From contig OZ245817.1 of assembly GCA_965228475.1 (NCBI GenBank), forward strand, positions 2,880,001 through 2,944,000: a stretch of DNA of 64,000 nucleotides, read 5' to 3'. Shown piece after piece: positions 3,751-47,028 of the stretch (positions are counted from its first letter, which is position 1; every line of letters begins with the position of its first letter). The DNA is from Myxococcota bacterium. Lineage in GTDB: Bacteria; Myxococcota_A; UBA9160; JAFDDA01. A model generated the notes under the pieces. The model made no database searches. It worked only from the letters and a program-made list of their open reading frames with translations, and was not told the origin of the DNA. The translations under genes were made by a program, and so were the position numbers.

Positions 3751-4428
3751 ATGAGCACGAAGGCCTCCGAGTGGCCTCACCTCCCGGACCCCCTCCCCCG
3801 GGACCCGTTGCCCTGGGTCGCGAAGTGGTTCGAAGAGGCGCGGGGCGCGGAGCGTTTCCGAAATCCCGACGCCATGGCCCTGGCCACCTGCGACGCGGCG
3901 GGACGCCCCCAGGTCCGCATGGTGCTCTGCCGGGGCTTCGACCCGGCTCGCGGGAGCCTGCGTTTCTACACCCTGCGTGACAGTCCGAAAGGGCAGCAGC
4001 TCGATGCCTCCGGCCGCGCGAGTGGCGTCTTCTACTGGGACGGCTGGGGCCGCCAGCTGCGCATCGAAGGCCGCGTGGCTCGTACCAGCGACGCCGACTC
4101 CGACGCCTACTTCGCGAGCCGCCACCCGCTCTCCCAGATCTCGGCCTGGGCGAGCGAGCAGAGCCGGCCCATCCCCTCACGGCAAGCGCTGATCGAGCGC
4201 CACGAGGCGTTCGCGAAACGTTTCGGTGTGTCCCCGACGGATGGAGTGGCGGAACGCGACGGCCACGATCCCGTCCCCCGGCCGCCGAACTGGGGCGGCT
4301 ACGAGATCCTCGCGGACCGGATCGAGTTCTGGCTCGAGGGCGAGGCCCGGATGCACGAACGCGCCGCCTTCACGCGCAACGCCGGCGCGACGGACGCCAC
4401 CTGGCGGGCCGAGCGCCTCCAACCGTGA
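3751..4428 (+). CDS. pdxH: Pyridoxamine 5'-phosphate oxidase
   Basis: PDAMALAT, RMVL, FYT..DSPKG, RQLRIEG, YFASR, SAWASEQS, PPNWGGY, IEFW..R.HER. Confidence 0.92.
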   Translation: MSTKASEWPHLPDPLPRDPLPWVAKWFEEARGAERFRNPDAMALATCDAAGRPQVRMVLCRGFDPARGSLRFYTLRDSPKGQQLDASGRASGVFYWDGWGRQLRIEGRVARTSDADSDAYFASRHPLSQISAWASEQSRPIPSRQALIERHEAFAKRFGVSPTDGVAERDGHDPVPRPPNWGGYEILADRIEFWLEGEARMHERAAFTRNAGATDATWRAERLQP

Positions 4429-4865
4429 GCGACGCCCCGGATCTTCTCCTGCTCGTCCACGTCGCTGCGACCTGGTACATGGTGGGCCTCTGCTGGCTGA
4501 TCCAAAGGGTCCAGTATCCGCTGATGGCTTCGGTCGGACGCGAGTCCTTCGTGGCGTACGAGCAGGGCCACACGGACCGGATCCGCGCCGTCGTGGTTCC
4601 TGTCATGCTCGTCGAGGTCGCCACGGCCCTGACACTCTTCTTTCGGGGTGGCAGCCCGGCCGAGCGGATCGAGTTCCAGGTCGGCCTGGCCCTGCTCGCA
4701 GCGATCTGGCTCTCGGCCTTCCTGATCCAGGTCCCCCTCCACGCGAAGCTCACGACGGCCTTCGACGCGCGCGCCCACGCCGAACTCGTCCGCAGCAACT
4801 GGATTCGCACCCTCGCCTGGAGCGCCCGCGGTCTGCTGCTCCTGCACCTCCTTTGGGCCGGTTGA
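4425..4865 (+). CDS. Small integral membrane protein of unknown function
   Basis: GTGA overlap with pdxH stop, about four hydrophobic segments, QVPLH...NWIRT motif. Confidence 0.7.
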   Translation: MSDAPDLLLLVHVAATWYMVGLCWLIQRVQYPLMASVGRESFVAYEQGHTDRIRAVVVPVMLVEVATALTLFFRGGSPAERIEFQVGLALLAAIWLSAFLIQVPLHAKLTTAFDARAHAELVRSNWIRTLAWSARGLLLLHLLWAG

Positions 4866-4949
4866 ACCGTTCCGATCGGGCGGGGGCCCGCCCGGGGCCG
4901 CCGGTGCTCGCCGCCCCCGCATCCCGGTCGCGAGTGATACGCTCGCCGG

Positions 4950-5891
4950 ATGGAATTCATCGAAACCCCCGACGAGCGCTTCCTAGGCCTGAAGGACTAT
5001 CCCTTCGAGCCCCACTACCACACGATCGAGCCCGAAGGCCTGCGCATGCACTACGTGGACGAGGGCCCGCGCGACGCCGCGCCGGTGCTGATGCTCCACG
5101 GGGAGCCGTCGTGGTCCTATCTCTACCGCTTCATGATCCCGCCCTGCGCCGCGGCCGGGCACCGCGTCATCGCGCCGGACCTCGTCGGCTTCGGGCGCTC
5201 CTCGAAGCCCACGCGCCTCGAGGACTACACCTACGAGCGTCACTGCGACTGGCTGCGCTCCTTCATCGAAGCCCTCGACCTGCGTGAGATCACGCTCTTC
5301 TGCCAGGACTGGGGTTCGCTCCTCGGGCTGCGCCTCGCCGCCGAGCTCGAGGGCCGCTTCGCGCGGGTGATGGTCGGCAACGGCGGGCTCCCGGACGGAA
5401 AGCCGCCGGGGGGTACCGGGCTTCGCGCGCTCCCGAACGTCGCTGCGTTCCTGGCGTGGCGCACATTCGCGCGTTTCTCACCGCGCCTTCCCGTCGCGCG
5501 CATCCTCCAGTTCGGCACCGGGCGCGAACTCGACGCGGAGGAGCTGCGCGCCTACGACGCCCCCTTCCCCGACGACCGCTTCAAGGCCGGCGCACGGGCC
5601 TTCCCGCTGCTCGTCCCGATCACACCTGGCGACCCCGCCGTTCCGGCGAACCAGCGCGCCTGGCAGATCCTCGAGCGGTGGGAGAAGCCCTTCCTCACCA
5701 CCTTCAGCAGCGGTGACCCGATCACCCGCGGGATGGATCGGGCGCTCCAGCGCCGGATCCCCGGAACGAAGGGCCAGCCTCACCGCACCGTCCGCGGCGG
5801 CCACTTCCTCCAGGAGGACTCCGGCCCCGAGCTCGCCAAGATCCTCACCGAGTGGGTCGCCGCGACCCCTGCCGAGGGAGCCATCGGATGA
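4950..5891 (+). CDS. Haloalkane dehalogenase (HLD-I / DhmA-like)
   Basis: TPDERF, MHYVDEG, LHGEPSWSYLYR, APDLVGFGRS, QDWG (Asp nucleophile plus Trp), GHFLQED. Confidence 0.92.
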   Translation: MEFIETPDERFLGLKDYPFEPHYHTIEPEGLRMHYVDEGPRDAAPVLMLHGEPSWSYLYRFMIPPCAAAGHRVIAPDLVGFGRSSKPTRLEDYTYERHCDWLRSFIEALDLREITLFCQDWGSLLGLRLAAELEGRFARVMVGNGGLPDGKPPGGTGLRALPNVAAFLAWRTFARFSPRLPVARILQFGTGRELDAEELRAYDAPFPDDRFKAGARAFPLLVPITPGDPAVPANQRAWQILERWEKPFLTTFSSGDPITRGMDRALQRRIPGTKGQPHRTVRGGHFLQEDSGPELAKILTEWVAATPAEGAIG

Positions 5892-39316: not shown

Positions 39317-40381
39317 TCACCCCCAGGAGAGAACCGCCGCCCGCTGCGGCGGGACGCCGCCGGCCACCACCCGCCCGTACGCGGCCTCGATGGCCTCCGG
39401 CCCGGCACCCGGCTCGATCTCCAACCAACCCGCCGCCCAGGCCGCGAAGGGATGCCAGGCGTCCGCGAACCTTCGGTGATAGGCCTCGAGCCCCTCCTCG
39501 GCGGCACGCTCCTCGGCCAGGTTCGGGATGAAGAAGAACCGGGGCGAAGGCCCAGGCATCGGGAGCGGCTCCGCGGACGGCGCGCGATGCGTGGCACCGA
39601 GCAGGACGGAGTCGACGAGCCTGTCACCGAGGGCCACGTGGGCCGCGGAAGTCGCGGCGGCGTTCCCCGCGATGTCGACGTAGGCGGTGCGACTCGGGGC
39701 GTCGATGGAGCCGAGCGAGTCGTACGTCAGGACCTCGGAGTACGTGGCGAGGCCCTCGACGAACCCGCGGTGGGTTTCCGAGGTGATGCCGATGCACCGC
39801 GTCGGTGAGCCCAGCCGAGAAATCGACCCCGCGAGCGACAGTGCCGTCTTGCTCGAAGCACTCGAGACGTAGACCGCATCGACGGCACCCGCGAGTTCTT
39901 GCGCGAGCATCCAGCCCGTCATGAAGAGCGCCCACAGGACGGGCTGGACTTCGCTGCCCTCCGCCGTCGAGACGGGGTCGCCCGCGCACCGGTAGTAGCG
40001 GTTGTACCAGGGGTGGAGCGCCTCGCGGTGCGGGCTCGCATCCGAGAAGCAGAGTGGAGTCAACGAGCTCGGGGTGACCACGAGATGAGACGCCAGCGGC
40101 AGGAAGCCGAACACGCGCTCCCCCACCTCGAGCTCGGTCGCGCTTGCTGCGACGCGCCCGAACCCCCAGACGGGTACGCACCCCCACCCGTCTTCCGCCG
40201 GGAAGTAGGCCCAGTATCCCAGGGCGTCTCCCATGGCCGCGTAGCTCACGTTGTTCGCCGTCAGTCCGAAGCGCTCGACCTCGATCAAGGCCTGCCCCTC
40301 CCCGATCGGGGGCGGCGCGTTTCGGGAGCGCCTCTGCGTCTTGCCGAGCTCGGACTTGCTGACCCAGATCTCCTCGAACAC
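39317..40381 (-). CDS. DUF2855 family protein
   Basis: FGLTANNVSYA..G..LGYW.YFP, VPVWGFG, G.RVFGFLP, SSASSKTA, FFF.P. Confidence 0.82.
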   Translation of the reverse strand: MFEEIWVSKSELGKTQRRSRNAPPPIGEGQALIEVERFGLTANNVSYAAMGDALGYWAYFPAEDGWGCVPVWGFGRVAASATELEVGERVFGFLPLASHLVVTPSSLTPLCFSDASPHREALHPWYNRYYRCAGDPVSTAEGSEVQPVLWALFMTGWMLAQELAGAVDAVYVSSASSKTALSLAGSISRLGSPTRCIGITSETHRGFVEGLATYSEVLTYDSLGSIDAPSRTAYVDIAGNAAATSAAHVALGDRLVDSVLLGATHRAPSAEPLPMPGPSPRFFFIPNLAEERAAEEGLEAYHRRFADAWHPFAAWAAGWLEIEPGAGPEAIEAAYGRVVAGGVPPQRAAVLSWG

Positions 40382-40491: not shown

Positions 40492-41049
40492 GTGACGGCC
40501 GACGAAAGATGGGGGCCGCTCGCGGCCTTGGCGGGGAAGTGGGAAGGGTCCGAGGGGCTCGACGTCGCGTTCTGCCACGCGGAGAACAAGGTGCTCGAGA
40601 CTCCCTTTCGGGAGGAGATCACGTTCGAGCCCTTCGGGCCGGTGGACAACGGATCCCAGCAGATGTTCGGCCTGGACTACCGCATGACGGCATGGCCGAA
40701 CGGAGAGGCCGAGCCCTTCCACATGGAGATCGGGTACTGGCTGTGGGAGCCGAAGGCCCAGGAGGTCTATCGCTGCTTCATGGTGCCGCGGACGACGACG
40801 CTGCTCGCGATGGGAAGTGCGGCGGCGGACAGCACCGCGTTCCGGCTCGAGGCGCGGAACGGTGAAACCACGAACGGCATCTTGTCGAATCCCTACCTGC
40901 AGAAGGCGGCGCGTTGCACGCGCTACTGGGTCGACGTGCGCATCGAGGGCGACGCGTTCTCCTACGAAGAGACCACCGAACTCCAGATGACGGGGCGCGA
41001 CGAACCGCTGGCCCATACGGATCGGAACCGGCTCACGCGCGTCGGCTAG
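40492..41049 (+). CDS. Nitrobindin/FABP-like heme-binding beta-barrel (DUF1794)
   Basis: WGPLAALAG.WEG..G.D, FH.E.GYWLWE, HTDRN.L C-terminal His. Confidence 0.8.
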   Translation: MTADERWGPLAALAGKWEGSEGLDVAFCHAENKVLETPFREEITFEPFGPVDNGSQQMFGLDYRMTAWPNGEAEPFHMEIGYWLWEPKAQEVYRCFMVPRTTTLLAMGSAAADSTAFRLEARNGETTNGILSNPYLQKAARCTRYWVDVRIEGDAFSYEETTELQMTGRDEPLAHTDRNRLTRVG

Positions 41050-42326
41050 CCGGCGTCGGACCGGCGGGCCCATTCCTCGAGGACGTCGCCCGCGCGTTCG
41101 AGGTAGCCCTCGCCCCGGACGAGTTCGCGATAGCCCGGGACGGCGCCCACCCACTTGCCCAACCGGACGTTCGGCGCATCGGTGAGGTACAGGGTGGCGA
41201 GTCCCATCAACGCGGGGCCGTCCATCCCCGCGGTGGTGACCCCCACCTGACCGACCAGACCGTGCGTTCGCCTCAGGTGCTCGAAGAGCTGGAGCTGGGC
41301 ACGCCGCATGTCGGCCCCTTGGAAGAGCGGGTCCTTCCAGAAGAGCGTGAGATCCACGGCGCCCGCCGGGACCGGCCCGTCGAGGGCGTCGCCCACGAAG
41401 ATCGGCGTCAGTCCGGCCGCGCCCGATCGCGCCGCGAGCTCGAGCAGCTCCTCCTCCGACGAGTTGCGCCACTTCTGATAGGCGCTGTGACGAACCCAGA
41501 CGAGGACCTTGCCGCGGAGCAGAGCGTCCCCCATCGCGCGATCGGCCCAGTCGACGATCCGCCGAGGGACCGGCCCGTCGCCGAGGAACGCGGCCCGGAG
41601 CTTCCGCTGCGAAGCGCGCGGATCGGCGCGGAAGGCCTGCGCCACGATCGCGGGGAGCTGTTTGTTCGCACGAGGGCGCGACCGTGGCGGGACCAGCCGC
41701 CCCCGGAGCCCGGCATCGTGGAGGAAGCGCTCCGCCTGGTGTGTCTGCGGTTGGTCGGGCTCGATCTGGATCGCGACGCCCGCGAGCACCGCCGCAGCTC
41801 CCAGATACCAACCCTCACCGAAGGAGAACCCCGGATCGGCGTGGAAGGTGTACGCGTCGTTGCGTTGGTCGACGATGCGTCGTGCATCTCGCGCCGCAGT
41901 CTCCGCCGCGCGCGAGGACTCCCACACAGCGGAGTCGTCCAACCGGGATACCAACTCCTTGGCTTGCCTTGCAGCCGCCTCGGCACCGGCCACGATGGCG
42001 TCGACCCGTCGCCAACCGTCGTCGCAGGCTTCCCGGGTCGGCGCGCGCTGAGCGCTCATCGAGAGCTGCCCCGCCCCGTAGCGGGCGTCAGCAGCACGAG
42101 CAGCGAGCGAGCGCACCAGGGTGCCGCGCGCGCATGCAATCGCCTCGGGCGTCGCGTCGGCTTTCGCAAGGGCGGCCCGCGCCAGCTCGATCGCCTGCAC
42201 GATCAGGCTTCGGTGGCTCTCGCGCCCGCCGGGCAACCCGACCCTGCGCAGCGCCTCCGCGAGAAGGTCCGCCGCACGACGCCCCAAGGCGTGCGCGTCG
42301 CCGGGGACGCGACTCGGAGAAGTCAT
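41046..42326 (-). CDS. Hypothetical protein (426 aa)
   Basis: Long ORF filling the space between two genes; helical N-terminal half and globular C-terminal half; no family recognised. Confidence 0.55.
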   Translation of the reverse strand: MTSPSRVPGDAHALGRRAADLLAEALRRVGLPGGRESHRSLIVQAIELARAALAKADATPEAIACARGTLVRSLAARAADARYGAGQLSMSAQRAPTREACDDGWRRVDAIVAGAEAAARQAKELVSRLDDSAVWESSRAAETAARDARRIVDQRNDAYTFHADPGFSFGEGWYLGAAAVLAGVAIQIEPDQPQTHQAERFLHDAGLRGRLVPPRSRPRANKQLPAIVAQAFRADPRASQRKLRAAFLGDGPVPRRIVDWADRAMGDALLRGKVLVWVRHSAYQKWRNSSEEELLELAARSGAAGLTPIFVGDALDGPVPAGAVDLTLFWKDPLFQGADMRRAQLQLFEHLRRTHGLVGQVGVTTAGMDGPALMGLATLYLTDAPNVRLGKWVGAVPGYRELVRGEGYLERAGDVLEEWARRSDAG

Positions 42327-42385
42327 CTCGCCCAAGCGAGTGGATGGCCAAGCATGAACCGAGCATAGCGGCGGGCGCCGCCGAC

Positions 42386-43483
42386 CTAACGCGTGGCGTC
42401 CTGGAACTCGAGGCCGACCCAGCGGACCTTCGGTGCGATGTACGCCACCCAGGCCCCGAGCGCGACGGCGACCGGCAGGGTCGGCAGCGCCCAGAACGCG
42501 AGCGCCCAGGCCCCGACGAAGCCGACGAGCTTCGCCATCGCCCACGGAATGAGCTCGGGGCGGATGAAGCCACGCGGGCGGAGGAACGAGCCGTTCGCCA
42601 CGAGCAGCGCGGCGAAGATCGGCCACGGAAAGCCCCTCGAATCGAGCGCCGGGGCGTCGTCGTGGGCCGCGTCGCCCGCGCCGGGCCCGGCGGCGAGCGC
42701 TTCTTCGACCCGCCCCCACACGTGCTCGGGCGTCGGACGCTCGAGCGCACCACCGACGTTCTTGTGGGTCGGCACGCTCCGCCAGCGGTAAAGGACGCGG
42801 CCTTCGCCGGACAGGGCGAGCACGCCCGGCTGGAAATAACCCTTCGGGTGCTGGGGCGCGTCCTTGCCGTAGTCCGCGGCGCTCCGCTCGAGGAACCCGA
42901 GGCGCCGGTTCACGAAGATCTCGAGCCACCCCCGCTCGTTGCAGACCGCGGAGATCTCCTGGTGCGGATCCCCGACGCACTCGAAGGGAAGATCCCATTC
43001 GCGCCGGGCGCGGTCGGCCAGGGCCTGCGGCTCACTGGTGACGGCGTAGACCTCGCCGCCCGCTGCGCGGATCGCTTCGACCGTTCCCGACTTCGCATAG
43101 CTTCGCAACTCGAAGCGACAGGGCGGTCACCAGAAGCCGCGATAGAACAGCACGACGCTGAAGGGGTGGCGGAGCGCAACGTCATCGAGCCACGCGCGCC
43201 GCGGACCGGGCGGCGGGTCGAGCTCGGCGACGCCGGCGGCCTCGGACGCGGCCCCGTCCCCGAGCCATTCGACCTGCGCCCCGTCGACGCGGAAGGTCTC
43301 TTGCCGGCACGTCCCTTCGCCGCACAGGACGAGGCGGAGATCCCGCTCGGCGCCCGGGGCAGCGGGCGGATCGACGATGCCCGTCACCTCGAACTCACCC
43401 GCGCCCCGTGCGTTGAACCAGGCCAGGGCCGCCTGGACGTCGCGCGCGAGGGGTTCGGGGATGCTGTCGAGAACCGTCGTCAC
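42386..43483 (-). CDS. Selenocysteine-containing AhpC/TSA (peroxiredoxin-like) protein, 365 aa, Sec at residue 119
   Basis: ORFs 43127-43483 and 42386-43108 are in frame: VVLFYRGFW-TGA-PPCRFEL gives UxxC. Downstream AhpC-like motifs AVTSEP, VGDP, QPGVLAL, RP; SECIS-like hairpin. Confidence 0.85.
43100..43116 (-). promoter_or_regulatory. Bacterial SECIS-like hairpin
   Basis: Ten nt after the UGA: GCUUCG-AGUUG-CGAAGC, a 6 bp perfect stem with G at loop position 2. Confidence 0.7.
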
Positions 43484-43511: not shown

Positions 43512-44492
43512 CTAGAGCCTGCCCGAGGCTCCCGGGCCAGCGCCCGCCGCGAGGTACCCGCCGTCGATCCACGCGGTCAGGACCTCCACGTACTCCTCGC
43601 CCGCGTCCTCGTGGGAGAAGTGCCCGGCGTCCTCGAACACGACGAGTCGGCTCGAAGGGAGGCGTTCGTGAAGGCGCTCGGCGTTCTCGGGAAGGACGAA
43701 GGCATCCGCGCCGCCCCAGGTGATCAGGACGGGCGTCTCGGTCTCGGGGAGCATCTCTCCGAGCGCGGTGAGTTCCCGTTCATAGGAGGCCAGGAAGGCG
43801 AGACCGAGGCGATGCGAAGCCGGATTGTGCGTGATGGCGTAGTACTCGGCGCGCGCGGCGGCCGAGGGCTCGGCGCTCGCGTAGCCCGTCTCCGTGGCGA
43901 TCTCGTAGGTCTGGCGCATGGCCGTTCCCGTGACCACGTTGCCCACGAGCCAGCGGTAGGCCCCCGAGCGGACCAGGCGGTCGAGCCCCGGGCCCATGGC
44001 CGGCGGGTAGTACCCCGGCCCGTTGAACACGTTCGCGCTCTGCACCCGGTCGCCGTGCTTCGCGGCAAGCCAGAGCGCGACCGGCGCCCCGACGTCGGGA
44101 CCCGCGACGTGGAAGGGGCCGATCCCGAACTCGTCCGCCATGCGAAGCACGACCTCCCCCGCCGCGGACGGAGACATCCTTTCTTCGGACCCCTCCGACA
44201 GGCCGAAGCCCGGCAGGTCGAGGGCCAGCAGGTCGTATCGCGCGGAGAGCGCCGGCCAGGCGGCGTCCCAGGCGCGGATCGATTGCGGGTAGGGCCCGAG
44301 CAGGACCAGGGAGGGCGCGCCGTCTCGCGTGCTTCGGCGGTACCGGATCTCCAATCCGTCGACGGTCGCCGTCGTCGCGGCCGCCCTCGCCTCTTCCCAG
44401 GACGGCCCGCCCTGTTCCTCTTTCGGGTTCGCACAGCCCAGAACGAGCACCGCCAGCAGCGGCGCGGATACCAGTGTGGCCTTCGTATTCAT
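43512..44492 (-). CDS. Alpha/beta hydrolase (Asp nucleophile, epoxide hydrolase-like), probable lipoprotein
   Basis: Lipobox VLGC, DLPGFGLS, GPDVG, WGGAD, AGHFSHED. Confidence 0.82.
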   Translation of the reverse strand: MNTKATLVSAPLLAVLVLGCANPKEEQGGPSWEEARAAATTATVDGLEIRYRRSTRDGAPSLVLLGPYPQSIRAWDAAWPALSARYDLLALDLPGFGLSEGSEERMSPSAAGEVVLRMADEFGIGPFHVAGPDVGAPVALWLAAKHGDRVQSANVFNGPGYYPPAMGPGLDRLVRSGAYRWLVGNVVTGTAMRQTYEIATETGYASAEPSAAARAEYYAITHNPASHRLGLAFLASYERELTALGEMLPETETPVLITWGGADAFVLPENAERLHERLPSSRLVVFEDAGHFSHEDAGEEYVEVLTAWIDGGYLAAGAGPGASGRL

Positions 44493-44668: not shown

Positions 44669-45172
44669 ATGAAATGGAACGAGGTCGGCACCCAGGTCTG
44701 CTCGCTCGCGCGCAGCCTGTCCGTCGTCGGCGACCCCTGGACCCTCCTCTTCCTCCGGGAGGCCTTCGCCGGGACCACGAAGTTCGAGGATTTCCTCTCC
44801 GGGACGGGCGCGAGCCGGGCCATCGCCACGGAGCGCCTCGGTGGACTCGTCGCGCACGGGGTCCTCGAGCGGCGCGAGTACCTCGATGCGCCGCGGCGGT
44901 TCGAGTACCGGCTGACGCCGATGGGGCTCGAGCTCCTGCCCGTGGTGCTCTCGCTCGTGAAGTGGGGCGACGAGTGGCTCAGCGACGGCGGCCCGCCACC
45001 GGTAGAGCTCACCCACTCCGCGTGCGGCGGATCGGCCGGATACGAACTGCGCTGCAAGTCGTGCGGCGACCCCCTCGGCAATGAAGTCGCAGCGACCTAC
45101 CGGCCCGGAACCTGGGCCACCGGCCGAAAGACGACGAAGAAGCGCCTCCGGCCAGCCCGCGCCTCGCGCTAG
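44669..45172 (+). CDS. HxlR family winged-helix regulator
   Basis: CSLARSLSVVGDPWTLL.LRE, EYRLT..G.EL.PV...L..WGD; C-terminal H..CG...C..CG. Confidence 0.9.
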   Translation: MKWNEVGTQVCSLARSLSVVGDPWTLLFLREAFAGTTKFEDFLSGTGASRAIATERLGGLVAHGVLERREYLDAPRRFEYRLTPMGLELLPVVLSLVKWGDEWLSDGGPPPVELTHSACGGSAGYELRCKSCGDPLGNEVAATYRPGTWATGRKTTKKRLRPARASR

Positions 45173-45178
45173 CCCCGG

Positions 45179-46942
45179 CTAGCGGCCCGCGTCGATCGGA
45201 ATCACCGGCACCAGCAGGTGGGAGTCGTACGGACCGCCCGCGTGGAGGACGTGGGTGCCGCGGTTGATCGTCTTCTCGTGCGCCAGGGCGGGGTGAGCGT
45301 AGATGTCGCGACCCTGGACCACGACCTCGAGCACCTCGCCCGGCCCGAAGCGCGTACTGCTGGGGAGGATCTCGATCTCGACGGGCACGATCTCGCCATC
45401 GCCGAGCGGAAGGCTGCGCTCGTGCGCAAGGACGGGCTGGGCCGGCGTCGACCGGCCTGGGTCGAGCTCCCGCTGGGAGACGCGCAGCCAGCCAAGCGCG
45501 ACCGGCCCGCGCGAGTAGCCGGCCTTGGCGTAGAAGGTCTGCTCCTCGCCGCGCGCGTCGTACTTCTTCACGGCGACGAAGAGGTCCATGTCCCGGGCGC
45601 CCTCGGCCTCGACCCAGAGCTTGAGCTTCATGTTCCCGGTGATCTCGGTCTCCTCCTCGAAGGCCGTGCGAAAGACCGCCCTGCCCTCCCGCGCGCCGTA
45701 GCGGACGGCAGCGGCCGCCTCTGCCCGACGCGGCCCGAGCGACCCGGCGGTGGCGTCGAGATGGAGCGGTGTGTAGACGGTGGAAGGCAGCGGCCAATCG
45801 GCCTCCCCACGCACGGCGTACTCGTCGCGCGCGTTGCGAACCTCGAGCCGCACGCGGGGCCGGGCGTCGAACCCGTTCGCCTCGCCCTTCAGGAAGTGAT
45901 CGAAGAAGGCGGTCTGCATCTCGAGCGCCTCTTCGCTGTAGTAGACCGCCCACTTCGGTCGGCCGTGCGTGAAGAGCCATTTCTGCTCCGAAGCGATGCG
46001 CTTGAAACCTTCGAAGGAGCCGCGCGTGTGCATGCCGTGATCGGACCAGCTCGCGCAGATCAACGCGGGGACGGTGATCTCCTCGAGCGCGATGCCCGAG
46101 GGCGGCATGAAGCGCTCCTGGAGACGTTTCATGAGCATCGGCCGGACGCCGGCGAAGGACACCACCGAGGCGGGCGGAAGGTTCGCCTCGTTGGCTTTGC
46201 TGCGCACGCGGGTCAGCCAGAACTCGGTGAAGGCGGTCTCGGGGATGCCGCCATGGAAGAGCACCTCGCGGAAGTTGTCGCTCTGGCCTTCCCAGGGCGT
46301 GATCGCCTTGAGGTGTTCCGGCGCCCCGCTGCCCGCGACCCACTGCGCGATGGCGAGGTAGGACACGCCGGTCAGGCCGACGTTGCCGTTGCTCCAGTCC
46401 TGCGTCCCCGCCCAGGTGATGGCGTCGTGGAAGTCGTGCCGATCCTGCAGGCTGAGCACGGTCGCGACGCCGCCGGACTTCCCGTAGCCGCGCGCGTCGA
46501 GGGTGACCACGGCGTAGCCCTGCTGCACCCAGTAGGCCGGATCGGGGCCCTCCCAGGGCGTCCAGGGGCTGATCGCGAAGCGGCCCATGTCGAAGTCCGG
46601 CTTCAGCGCGTTACGCAGGTGGTCCGGGTAGCGCCGCGGCCCGTCGTCTTTGTGGTAGGCGGTGATCGTCATGACCACCGGGTACCGCCCGGGCGCCGTC
46701 GGGCGGAAGACGTTCGCCGAAAGGCGCGTCCCGTCGCGGGTCGTCACCGCGACGTCGCGTTCGATCGCGATCTCCTTCTCGAGCGCCGAGACGTCGAGAA
46801 CGCGGATCGGACTCCCGGGCGAGGCGAGCAGGTCCGAGATGTCCGAAGGCGGGTGAAGGGCCGGCCCGGTTCCGAAGACCAGGTAGAGGCCGAGTGCGGC
46901 CGCGCCCGCGACCAGCGCCAACCCCCATCTCATCCAACCCAT
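45179..46942 (-). CDS. CocE/NonD family hydrolase with N-terminal signal or anchor
   Basis: RDGTRLSANVFRP, DARGYGKS.G, WSNGNVG..GVSYLA, WSDHG.H, PepX-like C-terminal domain. Confidence 0.9.
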   Translation of the reverse strand: MGWMRWGLALVAGAAALGLYLVFGTGPALHPPSDISDLLASPGSPIRVLDVSALEKEIAIERDVAVTTRDGTRLSANVFRPTAPGRYPVVMTITAYHKDDGPRRYPDHLRNALKPDFDMGRFAISPWTPWEGPDPAYWVQQGYAVVTLDARGYGKSGGVATVLSLQDRHDFHDAITWAGTQDWSNGNVGLTGVSYLAIAQWVAGSGAPEHLKAITPWEGQSDNFREVLFHGGIPETAFTEFWLTRVRSKANEANLPPASVVSFAGVRPMLMKRLQERFMPPSGIALEEITVPALICASWSDHGMHTRGSFEGFKRIASEQKWLFTHGRPKWAVYYSEEALEMQTAFFDHFLKGEANGFDARPRVRLEVRNARDEYAVRGEADWPLPSTVYTPLHLDATAGSLGPRRAEAAAAVRYGAREGRAVFRTAFEEETEITGNMKLKLWVEAEGARDMDLFVAVKKYDARGEEQTFYAKAGYSRGPVALGWLRVSQRELDPGRSTPAQPVLAHERSLPLGDGEIVPVEIEILPSSTRFGPGEVLEVVVQGRDIYAHPALAHEKTINRGTHVLHAGGPYDSHLLVPVIPIDAGR

Positions 46943-46985
46943 GGTCCGCCCTCCTTCGCTGCGCCCTTGCGTGCGTACCGTTATC

Positions 46986-47001
46986 CGATACAACTGTATC
47001 G
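46986..47001. promoter_or_regulatory. Candidate IclR operator
   Basis: Perfect 7 bp arms CGATACA-ac-TGTATCG between the divergent CocE and IclR genes. Confidence 0.6.
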
Positions 47002-47028
47002 TATCATGGAACATGAGGAGCCGCCGCC

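Follow-up and report, generated by a model that had tools for sequence, protein, structure and literature searches.

The closest described relatives of the gene analyzed here are the Prx-like thiol:disulfide oxidoreductases, which appear as "Prx-like protein" or "Prx-like 1" in the consulted portions of four sources (PMC1088965, PMC2398784, PMC9312934, PMC13188914). As far as the sections consulted state, the family is defined by pfam00578 together with a UxxC or UxxU motif, in which U is selenocysteine (Sec) (PMC9312934), and a 2026 review ranks it under "Predicted with high confidence" rather than as verified (PMC13188914). In the consulted parts of the Global Ocean Sampling (GOS) study, Table 2 lists "Prx-like 1, pfam00578, UxxC" with 225 selenoproteins, and file 3 of the 2008 supplement holds 20 occurrences of FYRGFWUPPC inside the "#Prx-like 1" block, some of them in sequences that include the N-terminal domain or the hydrophobic tail described below (PMC2398784). 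The supplement of the 2005 Sargasso study, in the part seen, files the relative AACY01098150 as "Prx-like", with its start placed downstream of the N-terminal domain, and the same study terms the family motif thioredoxin-like (PMC1088965). A further point of comparison is given by the iodothyronine deiodinases, which are described in the consulted part of another source as Sec-containing membrane enzymes (PMC11592359).

Here we report on a minus-strand gene in a window of 64,000 nucleotides (nt; the whole stretch of DNA that was analyzed), which covers positions 2,880,001 to 2,944,000 of contig OZ245817.1 from a Myxococcota bacterium. An earlier note on this DNA, made from the letters alone, had proposed that two open reading frames (ORFs) of the region are the halves of a single hidden selenoprotein gene. 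Our analysis makes it very probable that the region is indeed one gene, encoding a selenoprotein of 365 residues that belongs to the Prx-like thiol:disulfide oxidoreductases (Prx-like 1, UxxC). The gene and its parts are as follows.

42386..43483, minus strand: complete selenoprotein gene, with a GTG start at 43483, 365 codons and a TAG stop at 42388..42386
43129..43127, minus strand: in-frame UGA, assigned to Sec, residue 119 (translation and comparison)
43118..43129, minus strand: U-P-P-C redox motif (U119 to C122), preceded by W118 (translation and family alignment)
43116..43100, minus strand: hairpin assigned as the Sec insertion sequence (SECIS), with a 6-bp stem and the loop AGUUG, starting 10 nt after the UGA
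43253..43483, minus strand: N-terminal family-specific domain, residues 1-77, with C54 at 43324..43322 and C59 at 43309..43307
42692..43192, minus strand: AhpC/TSA (peroxiredoxin/thioredoxin-fold) domain, residues 98-264 (Pfam, Foldseek and predicted model)
42404..42628, minus strand: C-terminal hydrophobic region, residues 286-360, presumed membrane anchor (predicted model, hydropathy and family conservation)

Translation of the minus strand from 43483 to 42386 gave 365 residues with a single internal stop, a TGA at codon 119, in the context FYRGFW-U-PPC. The 118-amino-acid (aa) ORF (43483..43127) and the 240-aa ORF (43108..42386) share one frame (table 11 ORFs), as the earlier note had read them, and all of its coordinates and letters proved correct. 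The position of the GTG start agrees with the N termini of homologues in the family alignment (M-T-T-V..E-T-I-P). The gene is present as a single copy in its own genome.

Conservation of the UGA codon in relatives

A scan of species-representative genomes yielded 162 relatives, and the best 80 loci of these 162 were analyzed codon by codon. All 80, from metagenome-assembled genomes (MAGs) of Myxococcota and Gammaproteobacteria, have TGA at the aligned codon 119, which is in good agreement with the 365-aa Sec protein that had been proposed. The motif at the Sec site is U-PPC in 78 of them. The two variants are U-T-P-C in L029 (L029:4376-4387) and U-P-P-R in L045 (L045:4379-4390), the latter with an arginine in place of the resolving cysteine, and both loci retain the TGA and the hairpin. 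Upstream of the TGA, 79 of the 80 loci have 94 or more codons of open frame, which encode a conserved domain. In the exception, L098 (match 4001-5084), the frame is open for 24 codons, and the length of the match is not a multiple of three, which points to a frameshift in L098 or to an error in its assembly.

A sample of 401 genomes of the phylum, for which the number of stops was read rather than the codon position row by row, contained the gene in 27 genomes. Of the listed matches, 36 in number, 32 extend across residue 119, and all of these contain TGA; the 4 matches without it are fragments that do not cover that residue. As to copy number and distribution among the relatives, two or more paralogues are present in several genomes: G098 has 4 matches, and DUBZ01, OZ252299, JAJDAP01, JBGCEJ01, CAZAUR01, and CAJWGN01 contribute two loci each. 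Most gene-bearing loci lie in MAGs of Myxococcota or Gammaproteobacteria; a few lie in MAGs titled Spirochaetaceae, Hyphomicrobiales, or Acidobacteriota, and these occurrences could be due to binning or labelling errors or to lateral transfer.

A check for homologues with cysteine aligned to the UGA returned P0003 (389 aa) and P0039 (401 aa), which were the sole full-length proteins among the 120 best database matches and both read FYRGFW-C-PPC. No Cys form occurred among the 80 loci read codon by codon, nor in the 401-genome sample, where only stops were counted. Of the 120 best matches, 117 were C-terminal fragments of 231 to 257 aa without the active site, which is the splitting of the gene by standard pipelines that the earlier note had foreseen.

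The codon was also looked up in re-assembled contigs. Logan contigs from three sequencing runs belonging to two studies (X1, X2, and X3) cover positions 43127-43129 and show no alternative letter, and the X2 contig, at a depth of 165.6, runs through the entire gene with 0 differences. The contigs from X1 and X3 break at the segment that holds the UGA and the SECIS, and window positions 43104-43147 are common to a ~92-kb contig and a 34-nt piece of high depth, with 4 differences. This suggests that the conserved stretch of active site and SECIS also occurs in another locus or organism in those samples. No RNA run was listed among the sequencing runs carrying the gene.

A covarying hairpin downstream of the UGA

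The 17-nt hairpin GCUUCG-AGUUG-CGAAGC is present at the place where it had been described, separated from the UGA by the 10-nt spacer CCGCCCUGUC. When the 34 nt from the UGA onward were folded, the minimum-energy structure was exactly this hairpin (-9.7 kcal/mol; z -2.43; 3 of 200 shuffles equal).

Comparison between relatives was more informative than folding. In an alignment of 81 sequences, 79 of which are distinct, 97.5% of the cells in the 6-bp stem hold a base pair, and the covariation score of the stem was reached by none of 500 shuffles (0/500). Stems slid along the alignment as controls paired in only 28 to 61% of the cells, compared with 95.6% for the SECIS stem. Compensatory changes were found at two stem pairs, 22-34 (UA 29, CG 23, UG 14, GC 1, unpaired 12) and 23-33 (CG 53, UA 22, UG 3, GC 1). 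Because column 33 falls on the third base of an arginine codon, where the changes are synonymous, the covariation of pair 23-33 is hard to ascribe to constraints on the protein. RNAalifold independently recovered the same stem. Throughout the family alignment the loop is AGUUG or AGUUA, with G27, U28, and U29 invariant. An Rfam scan of positions 42900-43300, with E up to 10, returned no SECIS family and gave a chance match to sbcD RNA (13.8 bits, against a cut-off of 40). We regard the comparative evidence as decisive for the hairpin being more than a product of chance.

Selenocysteine machinery and other selenoproteins of the genome

The window belongs to a genome of 5.0 Mb that consists of one contig. 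The earlier note had predicted that selA, selB, selD, and the tRNA for Sec would be encoded elsewhere in this genome, and all of them were found. Profile searches identified selD (257.5 bits) and selA (530.4 bits), both above their cut-offs, as well as a full-length selB (310.9 bits, above cut-off, model positions 2-580 of 581). A tRNA-Sec was found at 69.9 bits, again above cut-off, and ARAGORN reported a tRNA-SeC with the anticodon TCA. Elsewhere in the genome, TGA terminates frames (table 11). With a conserved UGA and a covarying hairpin in a Sec-equipped genome, codon 119 is, on comparative grounds, a Sec codon.

Regarding the machinery itself, SelD has a pyridine nucleotide-disulfide oxidoreductase domain fused to its N terminus (L001:283-2514; own genome ~3887471-3889702). 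The fusion ORF measures 743 aa and comprises Pyr_redox_2 (11-303) and AIRS/AIRS_C (445-727), and the SelD match has no internal stop.

Four more AhpC-TSA matches with an in-frame TGA were observed in the genome (C1:2806870-2807265, 4748295-4748684, 479999-480391, and 2793629-2793985). Two of these four were inspected. L122 is a TxxU-type Sec peroxiredoxin (F-T-F-V-U), while L124 is a Prx-like protein with the motif F-F-R-G-H-W-U-P-Y-C. The L124 gene has a hairpin with an AGUUG loop, at a distance from the UGA identical to that of the window gene, and this shared loop and distance fit a SECIS inherited within the family. A search of the genome with TIGR01553 found no Sec-type formate dehydrogenase (8 weak matches, 0 above cut-off and 0 with an internal stop). 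Overall, the Sec machinery of this bacterium seems to serve mainly thiol-redox proteins.

Domains and predicted structure of the protein

The proposed AhpC/TSA-like domain was borne out by Pfam, where AhpC-TSA (PF00578) matches residues 108-178 with 32.1 bits, above the cut-off of 26. With E up to 1, Pfam returned nothing besides PF00578, so that the N-terminal domain is unmatched and no deiodinase family was hit. No curated NCBIfam model captures the protein; the SelL-related model NF040769 gave a sub-threshold match, and with 16.8 bits against a cut-off of 120 the protein is not a member of that family.

An AlphaFold2 model of the full protein, built with 41 family sequences, had a mean predicted local distance difference test (pLDDT) score of 89.2 and a predicted template modeling (pTM) score of 0.77. 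Its N-terminal unit consists of a helix (10-26) and four strands within residues 32-75 and is followed by a disordered linker (78-86). The redox domain (about 98-264) adopts a thioredoxin/peroxiredoxin fold in which U119 directly precedes a helix (120-131), and the C-terminal part has a short helix (287-297) followed by a hairpin of two helices (311-332 and 335-360). In a Foldseek search with the model, AhpC, BCP, and PrxQ were found at E of about 1e-5, with TM(target) values of 0.6-0.69 and identities of 10 to 19%. At the motif level, alignments place U119 on the first cysteine of the thioredoxin-type W-C-x-x-C and C122 on the peroxidatic cysteine of AhpC; in a weak alignment to 1we0, U119 falls on the Ser/Thr three residues before the AhpC peroxidatic cysteine. 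These motif alignments point to a redox center that is a thioredoxin-like UxxC and not a peroxiredoxin TxxU.

The N-terminal domain had been described as unrecognized and as containing a CxxxxC motif. The absence of a Pfam match agrees with this, and the two cysteines, C54 and C59, are invariant in the family alignment and lie at a beta-hairpin of the model. Folded alone, the domain reached a pLDDT of 79.3 and showed a cystatin-like helix-on-sheet arrangement. The best structural match had a Z of 7.7 (3ima_D; root mean square deviation 2.6; 69 aligned residues), and since models without a match typically reach a best Z of 7-8, the resemblance is at background level and no function follows from it. 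A profile of the domain run against 1.84 billion representatives gave 168 matches, one of 392 aa and most of at most 140 aa, the size expected from truncation at the UGA. A few long matches in multiple stretches, at profile positions 45-73, resemble repeat matches. No clear second architecture was noticed among the 168 matches, the long ones of which were not inspected.

As to the C-terminal region, 19-residue Kyte-Doolittle windows reached at least 1.4 only at centers 320-344, and hydropathy was high only around residues 311-353. This hydrophobic stretch is conserved in the family alignment. The flank of the helical hairpin is basic, with 3 K/R versus 1 D/E in residues 298-312, and the hydropathy scan showed no hydrophobic, signal-like segment at the N terminus. 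The combination of a C-terminal hairpin with basic flanks and the lack of an N-terminal hydrophobic segment would place the redox domains at the inner membrane, on its cytoplasmic side. Hydropathy and the predicted model suggest a protein that is tethered by a C-terminal membrane hairpin, with its redox domains facing the cytoplasm at the inner membrane. Of the membrane-bound Sec redoxin put forward in the earlier note, the C-terminal hydrophobic helices were seen in both model and hydropathy, while the location at the membrane is itself derived from hydropathy and a predicted model.

Proposed mechanism and alternative explanations

From what is established for bacterial SECIS elements, SelB with Sec-tRNA(Sec) would bind the hairpin and insert Sec at the UGA. 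Judging from the thioredoxin and peroxiredoxin families, Sec119, at the position of the attacking cysteine in the thioredoxin-type WCxxC, would attack an oxidized substrate. Cys122 would then most likely resolve the intermediate as a selenenylsulfide, so that the pair cycles between the selenol/thiol and the selenenylsulfide form. The substrate of the pair could be a disulfide, which we prefer, or a hydroperoxide. A location at the membrane face would make a membrane-associated substrate likely, for example, an oxidized lipid or a membrane protein thiol. An external thiol donor of the thioredoxin type would re-reduce the pair, and the N-terminal cysteine pair may, speculatively, form a second redox or metal site.

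A bolder interpretation would be that these proteins form a distinct, almost obligately Sec-dependent subfamily, in which the UxxC motif, the Cys-pair domain, and the membrane hairpin act as a self-contained redox relay on the cytoplasmic face. We consider this unlikely. If it is true, marine Myxococcota and Halieaceae-type Gammaproteobacteria would possess a bacterial equivalent of selenoenzymes that protect membranes, such as GPx4.

Several observations weigh against the assignment of a functional Prx-like 1 selenoprotein with a UxxC cycle. L045 has U-P-P-R and lacks the resolving cysteine, so the selenenylsulfide cycle is not universal in the family. Thioredoxin and AhpC align weakly with the protein (E 0.25-1.8), and a search of the family profile against PDB sequences gave 0 matches at E up to 0.01. 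For the hairpin, a single-sequence fold of the 66 nt around it was no better than shuffles (z -0.28), 12 of the 79 distinct sequences have a G.G mismatch at the third stem pair, and in one of these, L053, the minimum-energy fold takes another register. The TGA was checked on re-assembled contigs rather than on raw reads, and the best-matching run may stem from the source sample itself. Finally, the neighborhood is not conserved among 81 loci, the commonest true neighbor occurring in 7 of them and no operon partner being found. The genomic context therefore gives no functional clue, and function must be read from the protein.

The alternative that fares best accepts the decoding of the UGA as Sec and differs in the chemistry: Sec119 would be peroxidatic, and the protein would reduce lipid hydroperoxides at the membrane in the manner of GPx4 instead of acting as a thioredoxin-like disulfide reductase. 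The peroxiredoxin-like fold and the PF00578 match are in line with this, a membrane anchor would suit lipid hydroperoxides, and the loss of the resolving cysteine in L045 would be better tolerated by a one-residue peroxidatic cycle. Sec, however, occupies the Thr/Ser position of TxxC and not the peroxidatic position, in a motif of the thioredoxin WCxxC type, and the motif of the family has been published as thioredoxin-like, in the part of the study consulted (PMC1088965). We hold a peroxidase to be possible but doubtful, and retain the UxxC oxidoreductase as the preferred reading.

Whether the UGA is decoded as Sec at all can be questioned in two ways. The codon could be a true stop, leaving either two genes of 118 and 240 aa or a pseudogene derived from a gene that once encoded Cys. 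Gene callers yield exactly these fragments, and long open frames are common in the GC-rich DNA of this region. A pseudogene, however, would not be expected to keep its stop at one codon in 80 of 80 loci from two phyla, with protein-conserved sequence on both flanks. As a gene in its own right, the 240-aa ORF would begin inside the thioredoxin fold, just past the active site, and it has no conserved start, since the database fragments begin at differing residues. The presence of the Sec machinery and of a covarying SECIS also argues against termination, which we regard as highly improbable. A similarly slim chance is left to readthrough of the UGA, with a near-cognate or suppressor tRNA inserting Trp or Cys. 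Cysteine would function at this position, given that Cys forms exist, but the Sec pathway is complete, the geometry and loop of the hairpin recur in the second UxxC selenoprotein gene of the genome (L124), and TGA otherwise ends frames there.

Least probable of all is that the TGA arose from a true TGC or TGT through a mistake in sequencing or assembly, as the contigs of all three runs show no other letter at 43127-43129 and 80 of 80 relatives have TGA.

Taken together, none of the three outcomes that the earlier note had named as fatal to a Sec codon was observed: the genome has the Sec machinery, the full-length homologues without Sec carry Cys rather than Trp or another residue, and the Logan contigs, used in place of reads, hold no TGC or TGT.

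Genomic neighborhood

The genes around the selenoprotein gene are listed below.

39317-40381, minus strand: DUF2855 protein
40492-41049, plus strand: THAP4-like heme-binding beta-barrel protein
41046-42335, minus strand: ORF of about 429 aa directly downstream, with no Pfam family at E up to 0.001
43512-44492, minus strand: alpha/beta hydrolase
44669-45172, plus strand: HxlR-type regulator
45179-47014, minus strand: S15 X-Pro dipeptidyl-peptidase-like protein

The selenoprotein gene lies 28 nt downstream of the alpha/beta-hydrolase gene and in the same direction. At its longest reading (650 aa, 41046..42998), the ORF on the other side runs into the selenoprotein gene in a different frame, and this reading probably extends too far. 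When the ORFs of the 81 loci were clustered by blastp, the clusters present in a majority of loci were the two halves of the gene (81/81 and 80/81) and shadow ORFs overlapping them.

Comparison with known systems

The gene is not new as a selenoprotein. The earlier note had called it hidden, which implied novelty, and this part of its account did not hold: selenoprotein sets published in 2005 and 2008 already include the subfamily, as Prx-like and Prx-like 1. The gene thus joins a family known from ocean metagenomes since 2005-2008 and opens no new category. Its value lies in annotation, as public collections hold it almost solely as C-terminal pieces of about 240 aa or as short N-terminal pieces. 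The family unites a Sec redox center, a C-terminal region that is probably a membrane anchor, and an undescribed domain with a Cys pair, and its Cys form is very rare. The word "transmembrane" has a count of 0 in the main text of the GOS study (PMC2398784), and a description of the three-part architecture, of the membrane anchor, or of the near-exclusive use of Sec was not found in the consulted parts of the literature searched; full-text searches brought up no paper on the subject, as judged from titles and abstracts. The family raises the questions of which membrane-associated substrate calls for the chemistry of selenium in marine bacteria with an aerobic life and what role the N-terminal domain plays.

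The protein shares its fold and its Pfam family with the AhpC and BCP/PrxQ peroxiredoxins. Unlike in these enzymes, Sec replaces the Thr/Ser of TxxC and a cysteine stands at the peroxidatic position, so that the T/S-x-x-C/U pattern is absent. With thioredoxin and the TlpA/ResA-type proteins, it has in common the active-site motif, W-U-P-P-C-R aligning to motifs of the W-C-P-P-C-R type (3kcm and 3vfi), a resemblance at the motif level with E of 0.25-1.8. TlpA and ResA have an N-terminal anchor or export segment, whereas the window protein has no N-terminal hydrophobic segment and its predicted anchor is C-terminal. The similarity to the SelL-related model NF040769 is weak and extends over the whole redox domain, from residue 107 to 236 of the protein and from position 25 to 157 of the 173 in the profile.

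Deiodinases have a Prx-like fold, a U-P-P motif, and an N-terminal anchor. The window protein differs from them in having no match to the deiodinase Pfam family (E up to 1), and nothing in it points to a halogenated substrate.

The closest correspondence is with Prx-like 1. Like the members of that family, the window gene encodes an AhpC-TSA protein with a UxxC motif in which Sec comes first, has a SECIS just downstream of the UGA, and is of marine bacterial origin. All features of Prx-like 1 that can be computed were found in it, namely, the PF00578 domain, a UGA-encoded UxxC, a SECIS, Cys homologues, and relatives listed in the family by the authors who described it. There is no difference at the family level between the window gene and Prx-like 1.

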